From an uncultured Candidatus Saccharibacteria bacterium (GTDB lineage: Bacteria; Patescibacteriota; Minisyncoccia; Phycocordibacterales; JAKAEA01): DNA of 64,000 bases. Below, piece after piece: positions 14,616 through 54,353 of the stretch; the first letter of the stretch is position 1, and the number at the start of each line of letters is the position of its first letter. The notes under the pieces are model-generated. The model had not been told where the DNA came from, did not search any database, and saw nothing but the letters and a program-made list of their open reading frames with translations. Location: the NCBI GenBank assembly GCA_964577595.1, contig CAZNZK010000001.1, positions 66,271-130,270 of the forward strand, written 5' to 3'. The translations under genes were made by a program, and so were the position numbers.

Positions 14616-14936
14616 CTCCCCCGGGAGGATTCGAACCTCCGACCAATCGCTTACACGAGTCCTTCTATTACTAAAAGGGGTGGACTATATCATTTCCATG
14701 AACCGTGAGGTTTTTAGGAATGAGGCGCTTCCGCAAGAATCTTAAAAAATTCTTGAGTACTCCCGCAAGGGGATAGTCTCTACACCTTCAATGACTTTCG
14801 TCAAAGCTTGGCTCGGTATTGCCCACACGATCGTTTATCTTGGGGGGTTCACCGAATTCACCTCATTTTCAACCACTATTTTCAAAGTGGTGCTGCCTTG
14901 AGACAGGCGACTGCTCTACCGCTGAGCTACAGGGGA
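14616..14936 (-). tRNA. tRNA-Asn(GUU) interrupted in the anticodon loop by a 249-nt group I intron (exons 14903..14936 and 14616..14653)
   Basis: Minus-strand 5' exon TCCCCTG-TA-GCTCAGCGGTAGAGC-A-GTCGC-CTGT. 3' exon TAA-GCGAT-TGGTC-GGAGGTTCGAATCCTCC-CGGGGGA-G. Acceptor pairs with one G.U. Joined loop is CUGUUAA. U1-A72 and G73 as in bacterial tRNA-Asn. CCA not encoded. Confidence 0.7.
14654..14902 (-). other. group I self-splicing intron (subgroup IC3-like) within tRNA-Asn
   Basis: 5' exon ends in U, which pairs as U.G in P1 (exon CUGU / internal guide GCAG near the intron 5' end). Intron ends in G. Conserved core elements present: CCGAGCCAAGC, GAAGGTGTAGAGACTA (P7 5' strand) and GATATAGTCC (P7 3' strand / P9.0). 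Confidence 0.65.
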
Positions 14937-18925: not shown

Positions 18926-19109
18926 GGCTTAAATATAGGGGTCAGGGCCTAGTTTTGCAAACCAAACAAAAACTCCGCCGGAAGTATTAAAACTGTGGCG
19001 GAGCTTTGCTTAGCCTTGCGGGGATAACCACCCACTAACCATTGACACGTAGAAGTATAGCAGATTCTCTTTTACAGGCAACTATACGAAATAAAAAGTA
19101 TATTGCCTA

Positions 19110-19178
19110 AATTTTCTTGTAGGGGCGGCGGGAGTTGCACCCGCACGGCTAACGTGTCAATGGTTAGTTGAGACTCTC
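19110..19178 (-). ncRNA. tRNA-like structured RNA, family copy A (acceptor AGGGGCG/CGCCCCT, mini D hairpin, 9-nt loop CAUUGACAC, T-arm GCGGG-UGCAACU-CCCGC)
   Basis: 69-nt cloverleaf-like fold on minus strand. Near-identical to 52761..52831 with compensatory stem changes. Preceded by a conserved promoter-like motif and a leader hairpin. A hairpin plus U-tract terminator lies ~150 nt downstream at ~18957..18995. Confidence 0.45.
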
Positions 19179-19330
19179 TCGCGCCCCTATTACCGAGCAA
19201 TCTTACGAAATTGCCGGTACTTGTATTGTAGGCAGGGGTCGTTAAATTAGTCCTGAAGGAATAGTAAAGAAAAATTAAAATTCAACACTGCTCATTAGAA
19301 AAAACAAGATGTCAAATTTTCTGGTGCCGG

Positions 19331-20869
19331 TTAAAAATCGCGAAGGATGGAGATTTTGGCGCCGAGGGAATTGAGGCGAGCAACAATGTCTTCATAACCG
19401 CGGTTGATGGAATAGATATTACGCAAAACGGAAGTGCCACTGGCCGCGAGCATACCTATTAATAGAATGGCAGCGGGGCGCAAGGCGGGCGGACAAATTA
19501 CTTCCGCGGCCTTCAATGGGGTGATGCCGGTAACATACAAACGGTGCGGATCAACCAAAACGGCTTCAGCGCCGAGCTTTTCAATGTCTTTAGTGTAGAT
19601 AGCCCGCTTTTCATAGGGCCAGTCGTGAATGAGGGTGGTGCCTTTGGCTTGGGTGGCAATGATCGCGAAAAAAGGCAAGTTGTCCATATTTAAGCCGGGG
19701 TAGGGGCGGCATTCAATTTTTTCTTCTAAGGCGGTGAGGCGTGAAGGCAGGGTTTTTAAATCAACGAGTGCCGTGCGTTCGTTGTGCGCGATGTAGCGTT
19801 TCAGGATTTTATAACGGAAGCCCATTTTTTCCAGTTTCAAAAGTTCCAGTTCTAAAAATTCAATTGGCACGCGGCGCAAGGTGATGCTTGAGCGGGTTAC
19901 CACGGCGGCAGTTAAAAAGAACATAGCATCAATAGGGTCTTCAGCTAAGCGGTAGGTTACGGGTGCGTCTATTTTTGTCACGCCGTGCACAACGAGCGTA
20001 GTGGTGCCGATGCCGTCAATTTTCACACCGCATTTTTCCAAAAAGAAACACACTTCCTGCACCATATAATTGGCGGAAGCGTATTTTATGACCGTACGGC
20101 CAGGAATGAGGGCGGCGGCCATAATAGCACTCTCGCTGGCAGTGTCGCTGGATTCATAAAGAATGATTTCTGCTGGCTTAAGCTTGGCGGCCTGAACCTC
20201 GTAGTATTTCTCCTTCGTGGTGATGTTGACGCCAAGTTTTTCCAAAGCATAAAGATGTGGCTTCACGGTGCGTGAACCAAGCCGGCAACCGCCGGGCTGA
20301 GGCAGGCGAAACTTCGGCAGGGCGTGCAAGAGGGGGGCAATAAGCATGACAATGCTTCGGGTTTTTTCCGCCGATTCAGCATTCAGATTCTTCAGATCAA
20401 ATTTTTCCGGTGGTTTAATTTCCAAATCGTTCCCGCTGGCACCTGTCCATTTCACCCCGACGCCGATGGATTGAAAAACTTCAATCATGCGGTTCACTTC
20501 CTCAATTTTCGGCACGCTCTGCAAAACGGTTTTGTTGCGATTTAAAAGAGCGGCGCAGAGCAAACCCATGGCGCCGTTTTTACTCGTTTTAATGGTGATA
20601 TCTCCGGAAAGCGGGCGACCGCCTTCAATCCGAAAATTCAAGGCACCTTTGGAAAGCTGGAGGATGTCGCGGTCCAAGGCGCCACTTAATTTGGCCAGCA
20701 TTTCCGTGGACAAGTTTTGCTCTCCGCGCTCAATGCGAGCAATGGCGCTCTGGCTGGTTTCTAGGCGAAGGGCCAATTCGTCTTGCGTTAAGCCACGGGC
20801 TTGGCGCAAGCGGCTGATAAAGGTGCCTATATCGCTCAAGTGCTTGGCTGTTCGTGGGGCGGCTGGCAT
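19331..20869 (-). CDS. murA: UDP-N-acetylglucosamine 1-carboxyvinyltransferase (MurA) with N-terminal XRE-type HTH domain fusion
   Basis: MurA/EPSP-synthase fold throughout (FRIEGGRPLSGDITIKTSKNGAMGLLCAALL; active-site region QPGGCRLGSRTVKPH). First ~65 aa ISRLRQARGLTQDELALRLETSQSAIARIERGEQNLSTEMLAKLSGAL form a Cro/C1-type HTH. Start inferred at MPAAPRT; the upstream part of the 672-aa track ORF reads through an AT-rich promoter. Confidence 0.65.
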   Translation of the reverse strand: MPAAPRTAKHLSDIGTFISRLRQARGLTQDELALRLETSQSAIARIERGEQNLSTEMLAKLSGALDRDILQLSKGALNFRIEGGRPLSGDITIKTSKNGAMGLLCAALLNRNKTVLQSVPKIEEVNRMIEVFQSIGVGVKWTGASGNDLEIKPPEKFDLKNLNAESAEKTRSIVMLIAPLLHALPKFRLPQPGGCRLGSRTVKPHLYALEKLGVNITTKEKYYEVQAAKLKPAEIILYESSDTASESAIMAAALIPGRTVIKYASANYMVQEVCFFLEKCGVKIDGIGTTTLVVHGVTKIDAPVTYRLAEDPIDAMFFLTAAVVTRSSITLRRVPIEFLELELLKLEKMGFRYKILKRYIAHNERTALVDLKTLPSRLTALEEKIECRPYPGLNMDNLPFFAIIATQAKGTTLIHDWPYEKRAIYTKDIEKLGAEAVLVDPHRLYVTGITPLKAAEVICPPALRPAAILLIGMLAASGTSVLRNIYSINRGYEDIVARLNSLGAKISILRDF

Positions 20870-20996
20870 ATTAAAATAATATATCACATATGGTATATAT
20901 TTAAAAATTGAAAAATGGTGATAACTTTTGTAGGCTTGCGATATTTCTGCAAGGTGATAGCGTAGTGGTTGGATACTTTGTTTTTGGAGGTGCCCT

Positions 20997-21275
20997 ATGG
21001 CTAAAGTACCAACGTCCGATGAGGTTTTTGCGGGTGTAGAGGAAGTTCTCCGTGACACCTTTGTCGCTCCCGGCGCGATCATTAACCGTGATACGCTCCT
21101 CAAGGAAGATCTTAAGGCTGATTCGCTTGATAGCGCGGAGGTCGTCCTCAGCCTGGAGGAGAAGTTCGGGATTGAAATTCCCGACTCTGCGCTGGAGCCG
21201 GTTCCGACAACGGTTGGCGATCTCTGTGCTGTGGTTATGCGTCTCGTCCAGGCCCGGGAGCCAAGCGTTTCGTAA
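20997..21275 (+). CDS. acpP: acyl carrier protein
   Basis: Phosphopantetheine attachment motif LKADSLDSAEVVLSLEEKFGIEIPD. GGAGGTG RBS upstream. Confidence 0.7.
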   Translation: MAKVPTSDEVFAGVEEVLRDTFVAPGAIINRDTLLKEDLKADSLDSAEVVLSLEEKFGIEIPDSALEPVPTTVGDLCAVVMRLVQAREPSVS

Positions 21276-21375
21276 GGAGTTTTTGCAAAATGTCGCAGTA
21301 CTACTCGCCGCCCTATCGTGGGCGGCTTTTCATTTGCCAGAATCTGCATAAAATGGTACTATTCTAGTAGCGTTT

Positions 21376-51043: not shown

Positions 51044-51208
51044 ATTCTTTATCTTTTTTTCATATTCATTTTAACATTTATTTAACGACCGCAAATAGTC
51101 AAAACCCTTACAATGTGTGCATATGCTGTGGATTGTGCACTGGAGAATGGTTTTCACGTTAGCACAAGGATTTTTAGTATGAAAATACGGTGTGTTATGA
51201 TTAAAAAA

Positions 51209-51859
51209 ATGAACATAAACCCAGAGGCAAAAAGAATACTGTGTTTTGGAGACTCCAATACTTGGGGGTATATGCCGGGGAGTAAGCACAATCGCTATTC
51301 AGCAGACCTGCGTTGGACGGGCATATTACAAGGGTTATTGGGTACCTCTTACGAAGTTATTGAAGAAGGTCTTAATTCTCGTGGAATCACAAAAGGAGAT
51401 CCACGTCCGGGAAAAGAAGGAAGAAGTTCTATAGAATATATAATCCCTTGTTTAGACTCCCATGACCCGCTGGATTATATAGTTGTATTTCTTGGTACAA
51501 ATGAACTTAAATCGGAATTTAACCTATCTGCTGAGGGTGTTGGCGAGAACTTGGAAATGTTAATAAGAATGATTATTAAACAGCCATCACAATTTAGAGA
51601 TATAAAACCTCAAATACTTATTGTCACCCCTCCCGCTGTAAGCGAAACAACAGAATATGCTTCAAAAGGTGGAAAATATAGAGGCGCACATGAAAAATCC
51701 ATAGAACTTAAAAAGATTTTTAAGAAAGTGGCGGAAGATACTAGTAGTTTGTTTGTTGATATTCAAGACCAGTTGTCGGTGGGAGAGGACGGTGTACACA
51801 TGCTTCCTGTCGGACACAAAAAACTTGCTGAAGCGGTGCGTTCCATCTTGGTTGAGTAA
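51209..51859 (+). CDS. SGNH/GDSL-family hydrolase (esterase/lipase-like)
   Basis: ILCFGDSNTWG (GDS block I), conserved G and N blocks, C-terminal DGVHM (DxxH). AT-rich region. Start inferred at MNINPEAK. Confidence 0.6.
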   Translation: MNINPEAKRILCFGDSNTWGYMPGSKHNRYSADLRWTGILQGLLGTSYEVIEEGLNSRGITKGDPRPGKEGRSSIEYIIPCLDSHDPLDYIVVFLGTNELKSEFNLSAEGVGENLEMLIRMIIKQPSQFRDIKPQILIVTPPAVSETTEYASKGGKYRGAHEKSIELKKIFKKVAEDTSSLFVDIQDQLSVGEDGVHMLPVGHKKLAEAVRSILVE

Positions 51860-51948
51860 ATTAAACAAAAACTACATGTCCCCATCCTTAGGCGTGGGAC
51901 ATGTAGTTTTTGCTATTCTCCACTCCCAATTTGCTATACTTTCAGTAT

Positions 51949-52551
51949 ATGAAAAGCTCATCAAAAGGTTCCGTTAAAACAATATTAATAATAATTATTA
52001 TTCTTGTACTTATTGGTTTTGTTATCTACGCGTATTCGCAGCAGGGGACTAGTCAATCGGCGAATACTCCTACTGCCACAGTTTTCACAAACACAAATCA
52101 AACTCCGGCTGTTCCTCAAACCCCAGCTCCGAAAACTACCCAAACAAACGTCCTTGCTCCTGCAAAGGTCACTCCTTCCGCAAATTCCAGTCTTATTAGC
52201 GTTTTTGCTCCTGTGGCCGGCAGCCAGTTCAAGGTTGCAAAATCAGGGAATTGGACATCAGTACAGCCAATATCAATTATCTGGGCTACGCATTACGCGC
52301 CAGTTAAGGGTCTCTTTGCCTTTCTGGTGCCGAGCAATAAAACTAGTTCTTCTGTTTATTTTGCCGATCAGCTAGGGATTACTGCTAGTGGTGGCAGCAC
52401 CCTCACTATTGGGGGAAATAATCTAACGATCCCTCCTGGTAGTTATCAAATCAAAATTTGTGATGAGGGAAATATCACCAATCCTTCTGCCAATCCTATC
52501 GCCGGCACGGCATGTGGCCTGAGTCCTGTTTTCAGCCTCGTTGCTTCGTAG
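51949..52551 (+). CDS. hypothetical membrane-anchored Thr/Pro-rich protein
   Basis: TM anchor ILIIIIILVLIGFVIYAY followed by a T/P-rich linker and a beta-rich domain. Confidence 0.35.
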   Translation: MKSSSKGSVKTILIIIIILVLIGFVIYAYSQQGTSQSANTPTATVFTNTNQTPAVPQTPAPKTTQTNVLAPAKVTPSANSSLISVFAPVAGSQFKVAKSGNWTSVQPISIIWATHYAPVKGLFAFLVPSNKTSSSVYFADQLGITASGGSTLTIGGNNLTIPPGSYQIKICDEGNITNPSANPIAGTACGLSPVFSLVAS

Positions 52552-52760
52552 GAAAAGAGTTATATATTAAATTGTCTGTTATCACTCGGGTACAAGCGAT
52601 CAATTTTGCGTGTATAGATTTTACGCAGTTCTCTTGACGCACTCAATTTTCTAATGAGCAGTACGCGATTTCATAAAAGATTTAAGTCTCTTTCAGGACT
52701 ATTTTAACAACCCCTGACTAAAATACTAATACCGGCAATTCTGCGGAATTGCTCGGCAAT

Positions 52761-52831
52761 AGGGGCGTGAGAGTAGTCTCAACTAATTCTTGACGTATTA
52801 GTCTTGCGGGGTGCAACTCCCGCCGCCCCTA
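52761..52831 (+). ncRNA. tRNA-like structured RNA, family copy C (loop UCUUGACGU; anticodon-like stem CTAAT/ATTAG compensatory to copy A CTAAC/GTTAG)
   Basis: Shares about 85% identity with copy A from 52694 (CAGGACTATTTTAACAACCCCTGACTAAAATAC promoter-like motif) through the tRNA-like domain, downstream conserved blocks and the terminator at ~52958..52990. Confidence 0.45.
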
Positions 52832-52991
52832 CCACAAAAATAGTCAACAACACAAATTTTTTATTGCGTATAGTTGCTTGTATGTGGGGATCTGTTATAC
52901 TCCCTTAACATGTCAAGAGTTAGTTAGGGATTATATCTCTAAGACTAAGCCAAAGACTCCGCTAGGTGTAATAACTAGGCGGGGTTTTTGT

Positions 52992-54353
52992 TTATCTTAA
53001 ACTTTCAATAATGGAGCCGCTGGCAATATCTTTCACCTCAAACCCTAGTTTCTGAATTTTTTTGCGAATATCATCGGCATCATTCCAGCGTTTTTCGGCG
53101 CGGGCCTGTTCGCGTTCAGTCGTGAGTTTTTTGACTTCTTCTGGAATAGTAATGTGGTGCTTCTGGCCAAGTTGGAGGCCAAGAACCGTATCAAATTTCA
53201 AAATAGTTGCTTTTTTGGTGCCGGCAGAAAGTTTCTGATCGCCAACCATCTCCCACACAATAGCCAAGGCTTGCGGGGTGTTCAAGTCGTCATTAACAGC
53301 ATTCAAAAATGCTTTTTCGTATCTTCCAGTATTTTCAGTTGTCTCGCCATGCCATTCTTGCGTGTATCCCTGAAGCCGCTTATAGGCCTGCCCAGCCGCT
53401 TCGAGCGCTTCCCAGCTAAAATTCATCGGGGTGCGGTAATGGCCGCCAAGGAGCCAGTAGCGATAGGCGAGAGGGTTAATGCCGCGTTCAGTGATGCTGG
53501 CGAGCGTAATGCCCGTGCCTTCTGATTTCGCCATTTTACTCTCTCCCACATTCACAAAAGCATTATGGAGCCAGTAATTTACGAAGGGCCCGCCATGCGC
53601 GCATTCCGACTGGGCGATTTCGTTATTATGGTGGATCGGCGCTAAATCCATGCCGCCGGTGTGAATGTCAAAATGCGGGCCGAGGTAGCGTTCACTCATG
53701 GCCGAGCACTCTATATGCCAGCCAGGGAAACCCTTACCCCAAGGACTTTCGTAGCCAATAGAGTGATTGAATTTCCACAGAGCAAAATCTTTTTGGTTTT
53801 TCTTCTCGCTTTTGAGACCGATACGCGATTCGTCGCCGCCGGTGCCGCCCAGCTTGCCGTAGTGTGAGTCCTTGCTTGTGTCAAAATAAAGGCCATCGGA
53901 AGTTTTGTAGGTAAAACCTTTCTTCTCCAGCTTTTCAATAAGCTTTATGTCTTCGGAAATGTGTTGGGAAGCACGGGGCAATTCGTGCGGAGGCAGAATA
54001 TTGAGCGCCGCGATGTCGGCCTGGAATTTTTTAGTGTAAAAATCGGTTAGTCCACTCATGGCCTCCAACGTAATGGGCTTGCCTTCGCGCTTCAATCCTC
54101 GGATGATCTTATCCTCACCTTCGTCGTTGTCGCCGCCAATGCCAACGTCGGTGATATTCACCACTTGGCGCACGGCGAAACTATTATATTCAAAAACGCG
54201 CCGAACGATGTCGGAAAGCACAAATGAGCGCAAGTTACCGATATGTGCGTAATCATAGACCGTTGGCCCACAGGAATAAAGGCCGACATGGCCGACCTTA
54301 ATGGGCGTAAATAGCTCTTTTTTCTTGGTTAATGAGTTTGTCAATTCAATCAT
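52992..54353 (-). CDS. cysS: cysteinyl-tRNA synthetase
   Basis: Start inferred at MIELTNSLTKKKELFTPIKVGHVGLYSCGPTVYDYAHIGN (HIGH); KMAKSEG (KMSKS); C-terminal DALR-like domain. Track ORF extends 44 codons further upstream. Confidence 0.8.
   Translation of the reverse strand: MIELTNSLTKKKELFTPIKVGHVGLYSCGPTVYDYAHIGNLRSFVLSDIVRRVFEYNSFAVRQVVNITDVGIGGDNDEGEDKIIRGLKREGKPITLEAMSGLTDFYTKKFQADIAALNILPPHELPRASQHISEDIKLIEKLEKKGFTYKTSDGLYFDTSKDSHYGKLGGTGGDESRIGLKSEKKNQKDFALWKFNHSIGYESPWGKGFPGWHIECSAMSERYLGPHFDIHTGGMDLAPIHHNNEIAQSECAHGGPFVNYWLHNAFVNVGESKMAKSEGTGITLASITERGINPLAYRYWLLGGHYRTPMNFSWEALEAAGQAYKRLQGYTQEWHGETTENTGRYEKAFLNAVNDDLNTPQALAIVWEMVGDQKLSAGTKKATILKFDTVLGLQLGQKHHITIPEEVKKLTTEREQARAEKRWNDADDIRKKIQKLGFEVKDIASGSIIESLR

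Follow-up and report, generated by a model that had tools for sequence, protein, structure and literature searches.

A family of tRNA-like cassettes in a Candidatus Saccharibacteria genome, each with a candidate antisense small RNA

Introduction

What might a transfer RNA (tRNA)-like RNA that lacks the look of a normal decoder be doing in the spacer between a murA-like gene and priA? The question is raised by a minus-strand locus in a 64,000-nucleotide (nt) stretch of DNA from an uncultured Candidatus Saccharibacteria bacterium (contig CAZNZK010000001.1, positions 66,271 to 130,270), referred to below as the window. A reading made from the sequence only had described the locus as one unit of ~310 nt, in which a promoter-like motif is followed by a leader hairpin, a 69-nt cloverleaf-like domain and an intrinsic terminator, and had taken it for one of three copies of a constrained RNA. 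All of these elements are present on the minus strand (19257-18964), in the intergenic region that runs from the murA-like gene to priA; and the locus, here cassette A, belongs to a family that numbers at least five paralogous non-coding cassettes of ~360 base pairs (bp), of which A, B and T lie in the window and D and E elsewhere in what is apparently the same genome. The answer that we favour, at somewhat less than even odds (a probability of about 0.45), is that each cassette joins a gene for a tRNA mimic to a gene for a private antisense small RNA (sRNA), which would recognise the U-turn loop of the mimic and mask or unfold it.

A family of cassettes with a tRNA-like core

Cassette B occupies 52634..52993 of the plus strand (tRNA-like domain 52761-52831) and emerges from BLAST as a unit, 52689-52993, that is 75% identical to copy A over 309 nt. 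In cassette T (56221..56573, minus strand; tRNA-like domain 56364-56434) a third occurrence of P1, the motif with which the unit of copy A begins, precedes a gene called tRNA-Thr(cgt) by ARAGORN (56363-56434); this gene is the tRNA-like domain of the cassette and the third copy to which the earlier reading had pointed, and at least one automatic "tRNA-Thr" call in the genome is probably not a tRNA. Copy D, on contig L009, is a fourth unit found by scanning metagenome contigs with the P1 pattern, and copy E a fifth (L013 20740-21135), reached 10 kb past the end of the window in an assembly identical to the window across the 13,360-base overlap.

Between copies the RNA parts have diverged to ~55-75% identity, the promoter hexamers, leader hairpin and terminator being retained in every one. 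The nhmmer profiles made for the trailer and for the part upstream match only the five complete units, with no truncated or solo pieces. Five loci match a covariance model built from four aligned cloverleaves (R1), with scores of 41-64 bits and E-values of 4e-8 to 1e-13, and the window and its flanks yield no other; four of the five are its training sequences, copy A among them, whose 55.9 bits (E = 4e-11) are expected by construction, and the sole independent match is copy E (41.1 bits).

The tRNA-like domain of copy A (19120..19188, minus strand) has the arms that had been claimed for it: a perfect 7-bp acceptor, AGGGGCG/CGCCCCT, with A1:U72, G2:C71 and G3:C70 followed by A73 and no encoded CCA; a single linker nt; a D hairpin, GAGA-GAG-TCTC, of 4 bp with a 3-nt loop; a 5-bp anticodon-like stem with a 9-nt loop, CTAAC-CAUUGACAC-GTTAG; a 4-nt variable region; and the T arm GCGGG-UGCAACU-CCCGC. 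The mimics measure 69-71 nt across the copies and share this compact core, with 0-1 nt between acceptor and D stem, a D loop of 3-5 nt lacking GG, a short or absent variable region, and UGCAACU or UGCAAUU as T-loop. Folded alone, the domain takes up the cloverleaf as its minimum free energy (MFE) structure in A, D, T and E; in copy B the acceptor, D and T arms are kept and the anticodon-like stem is not formed. The 271-nt unit of copy A folds with z = -6.85.

Covariation supports the cloverleaf. In an alignment of four copies, all of them paralogues and fitted by hand to the structure, 96.6% of the cells are paired and 15 of the 22 pairs have changed on both sides, and pairing falls to 43-55% when the partners are slid by 1-3 columns. 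Retention of pairs through double changes speaks against a fragment of a degraded canonical tRNA gene, the alternative that the earlier reading had allowed for.

The departures from ordinary tRNA are equally consistent. U33 is invariant in the five copies, as is C at position 37, where tRNAs have a purine; positions 31 and 39 are mismatched in four of the five (C-C, U-U, C-A, C-A), and the central triplets of the loops are UGA, UGA, CGA, CGU and UAC. Missing from the canonical set are G18G19, T54-Psi55-C56, the two nt at positions 8-9 and the purine at 37. The earlier view, of a constrained tRNA-like RNA unlike a normal decoder in appearance, is upheld. ARAGORN calls T alone as a tRNA and none of A, B, D and E, and in Rfam no family, the tRNA model included, reaches its gathering score with any of the five copies.

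These oddities are not a general habit of the genome, because the ordinary tRNA of the window, tRNA-Asn (14620-14935), has textbook D and T loops, with GG in the former and TTCGAAT in the latter. As an observation apart, a group I intron (Rfam Intron_gpI, 53.3 bits) splits the anticodon loop of this tRNA-Asn(GUU) gene, which is on the minus strand and whose joined exons read CUGUUAA; in relatives the syntenic tRNA-Asn(gtt) gene is continuous (L001 13871-13943). Group I introns have lately been reported in tRNA-Asn and tRNA-Asp genes of Patescibacteria (PMC13011429), with which this one is in keeping.

A seed complementary to the anticodon-like loop

Segment ACUAACCAUUGACACGU of the copy A domain (19152..19168, minus strand) comprises the nt before the anticodon-like stem, the 5' strand of the stem, the whole 9-nt loop and the first 2 bases of the 3' strand. 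It forms a perfect inverted repeat with ACGUGUCAAUGGUUAGU (ACGTGTCAATGGTTAGT; 19034..19050), its reverse complement 101 nt downstream, in which all 17 pairs are Watson-Crick. Copy B has 16 pairs, G-U included, between arms 105 nt apart (seed at 52908-52925), and copy D 13 perfect Watson-Crick pairs, 104 nt apart, between wholly different sequences (CCUGUUCUCGACA and UGUCGAGAACAGG). In T and E the match is shorter: CCCAAUUG-NNN-ACA, just 5' of the terminator (seed region of T CUGGCCCAAUUGACGACA, 56254-56271), makes 7 bp with loop positions 33-39, NNN being ACG in T, which has the loop triplet CGU, and GUA in E, which has UAC. Directly upstream of these two seeds stands a complement of the 5' strand of the acceptor, in T CUGGCCC (acceptor GGGCCGG) and in E CCGGGCCC (acceptor GGGCCCGG).

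The core common to all five copies is thus of 7 bp, between loop positions 33-39 (U33-C39 at 19160-19154 in copy A) and a seed N-U-G-NNN-A. Each of its 35 cells is paired, four of the seven pairs have changed on both sides, and the "codon" triplet of the seed covaries with the "anticodon" of its loop, as position 39 does with the seed; the matches are largely self-specific. None of 500 shuffles reaches the observed score, and slid partners pair in 20-54% of cells. The seeds were picked by complementarity and aligned by hand, hence a control on shuffled trailers, in which the chance of a 7/7 partner is 5-29% per copy; the long matches of A, B and D far exceed it. RNAduplex energies on whole sequences are uninformative, shuffled sequences reaching similar values.

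The invariant C37 pairs with an invariant G of the seed. Since this G needs C37 and cellular tRNAs have a purine there, the mimic-sRNA pairs look insulated from the cellular tRNA pool. The trailers of A, T and E also hold a block, GGUGG, with complementarity to the acceptor's 3' strand, UGGUGGA in T and E being the complement of UCC-A-CCA with its unencoded CCA; the block is paired inside the predicted fold of the sRNA, and we treat its pairing with the acceptor as a lead only. A further idea, that the seed is a mini-reading frame of NUG and a cognate codon, was dropped: pairing with positions 37-39 explains the seed more simply.

Two promoter-like sites and the case for two genes

Between the tRNA-like gene and the seed lies a sigma-70-like promoter, P2, picked out in copy A by a promoter scan at 19054..19081 (minus strand): TTGCCT (19081-19076), a 16-nt spacer and TGn-TATACT (19059-19054). 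Its counterparts read TTGCTT, 16 nt, TATACT in B (52874-52901); TTGCAA, 17 nt, TAAAAT in D, also returned by the promoter scan; TTGCTT, 17 nt, TATACT in T (56325-56353); and TTGACG, 16 nt, TAAAAT in E. Hexamers and 16-17-nt spacing are thus kept in five copies of five, with spacers of unrelated sequence and a TGn extension in A and B. P2 begins some 10-42 nt downstream of the tRNA-like gene. The distance from the -10 hexamer to the start of the seed is 4-7 nt in A, B and D (4 nt in A), which puts the seed at the predicted 5' end of the transcript, and the predicted sRNAs, of 77-100 nt, consist of seed, hairpin and terminator, the usual layout of an sRNA.

In copy A the segment 19008..19033 holds the small hairpin seen in the fold of the predicted sRNA, GGGUGGUUAUCCC, and a second antisense block, GGCUAA, which by inspection is complementary to UUAGCC (3' strand of the anticodon-like stem and variable region); the equivalent block of copy B is AAGACUAA, facing UUAGUCUU. 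The Rho-independent terminator that follows, AAAGCUCCGCC...GGCGGAGUUUUUGUUU (18964..19007), seen in MFE folds, forms the right-hand end of the cassette and stops 38 nt before the ATG of priA (18925), much as had been read from the sequence; its loop of more than 8 nt caused a simple terminator scan to miss it. The terminator end GCGGrGTTTTTGTTT is common to A, B and D (in B the terminator, 52952-52993, overlaps the convergent cysS at its 3' end); T (56221-56254) has a closely similar sequence there, and E ends in GGGGCTTTTGTGT.

Because P2 is conserved and the seed stands at the predicted 5' end of an RNA with sRNA layout, the cassette is most likely two genes, a tRNA mimic and its cognate sRNA, rather than a single RNA of ~310 nt. 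The earlier proposal of one unit thus holds for the promoter-like motif, leader and terminator, and probably not for the number of transcripts. The "conserved blocks" that it placed downstream of the cloverleaf are indeed conserved and resolve into a T-tract, P2, the 17-nt inverted repeat, the small hairpin and the terminator. The T-tract, CTTTTTATTT (19089..19098), lies between the tRNA-like gene and P2, at an equivalent place in A, B, D and T, with no hairpin before it, and looks like an A/T-rich UP-like element rather than a terminator.

P1, the motif TTCAGGACTAATTTAACGACCCCTGCCTACAATAC (19223..19257, minus strand), is a less ordinary promoter. Its -10-like hexamer TACAAT (19230-19225) stands as had been claimed and is kept in all five copies (TACAAT, TAAAAT, TATACT, TAAAAT, CATAAT); the proposed -35, GGACTA, 17 nt 5' of it, matches TTGACA at one position of six and is very weak. 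The spacer is strongly conserved, and the 24-nt core of the motif occurs 3 times in the window against 0.01 expected. The leader hairpin, which begins 6-8 nt 3' of the -10-like hexamer, is found in MFE folds of A and B and lies in copy A at 19192..19218 (CCGGCAAU...GAUUGCUCGG), ending 3 nt 5' of the tRNA-like start. Its presence was correctly noted and the sequence given for its 3' arm was not: copy A reads GATTGCTCGG, and AATTGCTCGG belongs to copy B. A leader stem GGCAA...UUGCC is found in five of five copies.

Proposed mechanism and alternatives

In the scheme that we propose, gene 1 would consist of P1 and the leader hairpin followed by the compact mimic, whose loop has the make-up of an anticodon U-turn (U33-NNN-C37-R38), position 39 being unpaired, and which would presumably be processed by RNase P and RNase Z and then receive its CCA; gene 2 would be driven by P2 and yield the sRNA, with a single-stranded seed 5'-N-U-G-(triplet)-A-3' for loop positions 33-39 of its own neighbour. 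Displayed on the U-turn loop, the "anticodon" would pair rapidly with the seed; growth of the duplex to 13-17 bp, possible in A, B and D, where it can take in the 5' strand of the anticodon-like stem, would unfold the cloverleaf; and the sRNA would in this way mask or destabilise its own mimic and spare cellular tRNAs. Our guess at a role is orthogonal RNA-RNA control or an addiction-type module, akin to a toxin and antitoxin made of RNA only, in which the toxicity itself is guesswork. A more explicit form of this idea strikes us as unlikely: a poison/antidote or gating module in which a stable mimic, chargeable with alanine and bearing a Ser, Thr or Val "anticodon", would interfere with translation by miscoding or as a decoy for alanyl-tRNA synthetase (AlaRS), EF-Tu, SmpB or the ribosomal A site, the sRNA being its private anti-anticodon antidote and the orthogonal pairs spreading as selfish or defensive elements.

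Several observations weigh against a mimic with its own antisense sRNA. In MFE folds of the full-length unit, A and B use a long-range helix and not the cloverleaf (z = -6.9 and -6.5); there is no terminator before the trailer, and read-through from P1, if P1 is active, would give a single RNA folding in cis; and GTATAG, just 5' of the P2 -35, can pair with CTATAC of the -10 region in A and B, where the block may be an RNA hairpin, a pairing that fails in E. P1 is without a credible -35, and the strong conservation of its "spacer" is unexplained. T and E pair with the loop over 7 bp only, and their trailers complement the acceptor strands as well; the A/B/D and T/E subfamilies may work differently. 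All of the evidence comes from five paralogues of one population, represented by identical assemblies, and apparent support is inflated because the copies share ancestry. The cloverleaf and seed alignments are hand-fitted, start sites at P1 and P2 and the pairing are predictions, and no function can be linked to any neighbouring gene.

The points just made about the fold, read-through and GTATAG/CTATAC are also what recommends a switch in cis, in which P1 makes a single RNA of ~300 nt whose trailer pairs with the anticodon-like arm (in T and E with the acceptor strands too) so that the domain stays an unfolded "pro-tRNA" up to the removal of the trailer by a nuclease or another signal, the P2-like hexamers being simply RNA sequence. 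We think this unlikely. A TTGnnn-16/17-TAnAnT arrangement at promoter spacing is kept in every copy around unrelated spacers, and a cis switch does not account for a seed that, in A, B and D, follows the -10 by 4-7 nt; copy E loses the GTATAG/CTATAC pairing, yet its promoter match improves (TTGACG-16-TAAAAT); and since anticodon stem and long-range helix both covary, the cloverleaf must form at some stage. That the cloverleaf is under selection would also suit working non-canonical tRNAs, whether decoders of UCA, UCG, ACG or GUA or non-ribosomal aminoacyl carriers, such as alanine donors in cell-wall or lipid aminoacylation, with the trailer complementarity left over from an inverted duplication. 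U33 is invariant, D, T and E have the full AlaRS acceptor identity set, ARAGORN accepts T, compact cores occur in the functional pyrrolysine tRNA (tRNA-Pyl) and mitochondrial (mt-) tRNA-Ser(UCN) (PMC7609411), and non-proteinogenic tRNA-Gly species likewise do without G18G19 (PMC4052509). Such tRNAs are nevertheless quite unlikely here: C37 in five of five copies and the 31:39 mismatch in four, the lack of a long variable arm for "Ser" anticodons, the absence of G3:U70 from A and B, the canonical look of the genome's ordinary tRNA-Asn and the ability of relatives to manage without these genes at the same sites all tell against them, and the covariation of triplet and position 39 with the seed is compensatory change that would not be expected from the remains of a duplication.

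The repeat might instead act in DNA, the cassette being a small non-autonomous mobile or recombination element whose 13-17-bp inverted repeat is a recombinase or invertase site flanking an invertible promoter, and whose tRNA-likeness comes from an attachment-site origin; the 3' ends of tRNA and tmRNA (transfer-messenger RNA) genes are common integration targets. A and T are clean insertions of ~360-400 bp relative to syntenic sites and B lies in a ~2-kb lineage-specific stretch; the arms are at constant spacing in A, B and D (101, 105 and 104 nt) with P2 between them; and the T arm and acceptor 3' strand are of tmRNA type. We hold the idea very improbable all the same. No terminal inverted repeats or target-site duplications were found at the cassettes when junctions were compared with relatives, and no recombinase, transposase, TnpB/IscB or reverse transcriptase gene adjoins any copy in the annotated flanks, results that also leave little to the earlier suggestion of an RNA-guided mobile-element remnant. 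The arms change compensatorily, including G-U pairs that make sense only in RNA (B and D), T and E have no long inverted repeat, and a single orientation is seen in all assemblies. Barely credible, finally, are functionless pseudogenes, decaying duplicates of a tRNA or tmRNA gene: confinement to one lineage, several copies and aberrant tRNA features would suit them, but despite ~55-75% identity 96.6% of the cloverleaf cells and 100% of the loop-seed cells stay paired via double changes, and every copy keeps its promoter hexamers, leader hairpin and terminator, with no truncated or solo pieces among them.

Comparison with known RNAs

The compact core of the mimics resembles those of tRNA-Pyl and mammalian mt-tRNA-Ser(UCN), whose listed features (PMC7609411) include a 0-1-nt acceptor-D linker, a D loop of 3-5 nt without G18G19, an extended anticodon stem, a T-loop without T-Psi-C and a variable region of 3-4 nt or none. 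The cassettes have neither the CUA anticodon, G73 (A73 in all copies) nor pyrrolysyl-tRNA synthetase (PylRS) context of tRNA-Pyl, and C37 replaces the purine; they differ from compact-core tRNAs at large in the mismatch of the sixth "pair" in four of five mimics and in coming with a cognate antisense partner. A parallel for non-ribosomal aminoacyl carriers is offered by Staphylococcus in its non-proteinogenic tRNA-Gly. Such tRNA-Gly species also lack G18G19 (PMC4052509, PMC12256121). Bacillus cereus has in "tRNA-Other" a tRNA-shaped, non-translational RNA thought to be regulatory (PMC3399842). The latter differs in being a single copy at an island border, without a cognate antisense RNA, and in its sequence and core.

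Antisense pairs that use a U-turn (YUNR) loop, multi-copy RNA-antitoxin families such as hok/sok and Sib/Ibs, and the RNA-RNA "type VIII" systems CreT/CreA and SdsR/RyeA are the known regulators closest in layout. Like them, the cassettes have two predicted promoters, canonical for the sRNA and weak and unusual for the mimic, and copy-specific complementarity that covaries; they are intergenic, in several copies and lineage-restricted. Loop positions 32-35 fit YUNR in B (CUUG), D (CUCG), T (UUCG) and E (CUUA); copy A has AUUG, in which A is no pyrimidine, and fits only one position along (UUGA). Unlike in those systems, the partner lies in tandem on the same strand and not opposite, the target is a tRNA mimic and not an mRNA, and no open reading frame (ORF) for a toxic peptide, such as the small hydrophobic ones of type I, is conserved across the five cassettes.

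T-box RNAs too offer a codon-like triplet followed by A to an anticodon, U33 also being paired, and a UGGU/GGUGG block could bind the acceptor 3' strand in A, T and E and, in the last two, A73-CCA too. The cassettes, however, are not 5' leaders of aminoacyl-tRNA synthetase or amino-acid genes, the order of elements is reversed, there is no Stem I/K-turn or antiterminator, and the partner is a dedicated C37 mimic instead of a cellular tRNA; the Rfam T-box model (RF00230) gives no match to them at E <= 1-10. The best Rfam match of copy A is the Tymovirus tRNA-like structure (RF00233; 20.4 bits, E = 0.05), with which it shares an identical T arm, GGGUGCAACUCCC. This score is half the gathering score of 40 bits, the likeness is confined to one hairpin, and the viral acceptor is closed by a pseudoknot at the 3' end of the RNA in place of the 7-bp acceptor found here. 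The only other sub-threshold Rfam matches of the five copies are to the tRNA-like domain of tmRNA and, by the terminator only, to Thr_leader and rnk_pseudo.

The five cassettes are not members of the tRNA, tmRNA, T-box or tymoviral tRNA-like families, since the defining features of each were tested for and failed. To our knowledge their combination of known kinds of parts has not been described before in the literature or in the Rfam searched, and we know of no case in which a tRNA mimic has its "anticodon" read by an sRNA dedicated to it. The case is documented in silico in one very small genome of the Candidate Phyla Radiation, where duplication has given at least five orthogonal versions of the pair. 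Should the pairing prove real, it would be a natural, programmable and triplet-addressed form of RNA-RNA recognition on a tRNA U-turn, a possible new route to controlling or neutralising tRNA-like molecules, and a handle on the non-coding RNA biology of Patescibacteria, of which almost nothing is known.

Origin of the acceptor and T arm

The G that stands in the T-loop in place of T54-Psi55 had been noted as an anomaly. It is present, and G at position 55 is a regular variant of tmRNA or tRNA-Ala type, because the same T-arm string sits mostly in viral tmRNA genes: GGGGTGCAATTCCCC-N5-TCCA occurs at 46 loci in viral contigs (IMG/VR; L014-L059), mostly tmRNA genes with a few tRNA-Ala genes. Copy D matches the Rfam tmRNA model at 33.3 bits (E = 1e-10) through acceptor and T arm only, the gathering score being 47; its T arm, GGGGG-UGCAAUU-CCCCC, plus CACCUCCA nearly equals the tmRNA consensus of Rfam. 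The loop motif UYGAC, by inspection, also recalls UUCGAC of the tmRNA D-loop region. D, T and E have G1:C72, G2:C71, G3:U70 and A73, which we take to be the alanine identity set; A and B have A1:U72 and G3:C70, have lost G3:U70 and, on that criterion, would not accept alanine. An RNA of tmRNA or tRNA-Ala type is thus a plausible source for acceptor and T arm in D, T and E; those of copy A, which has G3:C70 and no tmRNA match, do not suggest it.

In other respects the cassettes depart from tmRNA: they have a complete anticodon-like arm and D hairpin and are without mRNA-like domain, tag reading frame and pseudoknots, the reading frames of the trailers not being conserved. ARAGORN, searching the cassettes for tmRNA and permuted tmRNA, found none, and the idea of a two-piece tmRNA was rejected when the trailer frames proved to share no tag or stop pattern.

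Some of the viral sequences are of interest in themselves. The tmRNA genes with the T-arm string are mostly permuted (two-piece) and adjoin tRNA-Thr(tgt). Two of the 46 loci, L046 8048-8119 (minus strand) and L055 396-473 (minus strand), encode RNAs of 69-75 nt, not called by ARAGORN, that resemble a stand-alone tRNA-like domain of tmRNA, with a G3:U70 acceptor, a D region of type GGAUCGAC and the T arm GGGG-UGCAAUU-CCCC, ACCA being encoded in L046; they score 31.8 and 27.8 bits, respectively, with model R1.

Distribution among relatives

The three copies of the window are missing from the syntenic sites of relatives that share 72-75% identical PriA or CysRS (cysteinyl-tRNA synthetase). By the names that homologues of these two proteins carry, the organism falls in the Patescibacteria / Parcubacteria group. 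The murA-priA spacer measures 38, 91 and 193 nt in relatives with 72-74% identical PriA, and holds no tRNA-like gene there, versus 405 nt here; between the genes for L27 and L9, four relatives have 5-56 nt, without cassette T, versus 434 nt. Cassette B is part of a ~2-kb lineage-specific stretch between dnaB and cysS, where relatives have a spacer of 110-169 nt. In ~135 kb from five related genomes the covariance model found no copy, and neither did the nhmmer profiles, whose run on one locus, L061, is unconfirmed and which gave one weak trailer-like match, in L005. Conservation beyond this genome, one of the expectations for a functional element, was thus not seen in the relatives searched, and the constraint shows itself through covariation among paralogues instead.

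Scans of larger collections, all with exact patterns, agree: neither the exact 23-mer of T arm and acceptor nor the P1 motif was matched in the genome contigs, those of 185,579 species-representative genomes, or in the viral contigs, and a longer P1 pattern in metagenome contigs gave copy D only. Nor did blastn match the cassettes to phage or plasmid records. The identical assemblies provide no population variation.

One relative has a possible sRNA-only homologue at the murA-priA site. In its 193-nt spacer (PriA 74% identical; L005 8318-8432, plus strand) TTGCGC-16-TATACT, with no tRNA-like gene ahead of it, stands before a 77-nt RNA that consists of hairpin and terminator, folds with z = -5.9 and shows weak similarity to trailers of the cassettes (nhmmer E = 0.46); the sRNA half may predate the tRNA-like half at this site.

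The location just upstream of priA is as described and is incidental. A link to priA or murA regulation was considered and rejected: the cassette is terminated, relatives do without the tRNA-like gene, and priA, a 640-amino-acid (aa) ORF whose homologues are named primosomal protein N', has its own promoter-like site, TTGCAA-17-TATATT (18932..18960, minus strand), outside the cassette, whose boundary it marks. This site has a TTGC-type -35 in common with P2, and TTGCAA recurs in the short murA-priA spacer of relative L001. Neighbours of the cassettes include murA, priA, cysS, rplI, rpmA and glycosyltransferase genes, and four of the five cassettes face a convergent or unrelated gene.

Upstream block and minor observations

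Ahead of P1 the cassettes share a further block (19258..19320, minus strand, in copy A) with TTGACA at 19315-19310, TTTTCTAATGAGCAGT at 19302-19287 and no good -10 at proper spacing. It can be aligned in five of five copies, and an nhmmer profile of the upstream region matches just the five cassettes (E = 8e-37 to 2e-29). Over the upstream ~110 nt conservation among copies exceeds that of the RNA parts. A basic ORF of 17 codons, MSSTRFHKRFKSLSGLF or MSNGRFHKRFKKNSAKF, lies in this block in B (52649-52702, plus strand) and D (L009 3999-4052, plus strand); truncated in A, absent from T and E and without a Shine-Dalgarno sequence, it is probably non-coding, and was set aside as a coding or toxin candidate. 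A hammerhead ribozyme was likewise discarded, CUGAUGAG being found upstream only in D, where A and B read CUAAUGAG.

Three observations concern other parts of the window. At about 59111-59181 (plus strand; L013 8471-8541), in a 779-nt stretch to which a crude ORF list assigns no gene, there is a weak match to the Rfam antitoxin sRNA ohsC (35.9 bits, gathering score 50, E = 0.043). The lineage-specific stretch that contains cassette B also carries, at 51113-52551 (plus strand), a GDSL-lipase gene and a 213-aa ORF without Pfam match. The murA-like gene next to cassette A (19331-21349, minus strand) joins an EPSP_synthase fold to an N-terminal XRE-type helix-turn-helix, a fusion found also in relatives, in gene calls of 512-526 aa.

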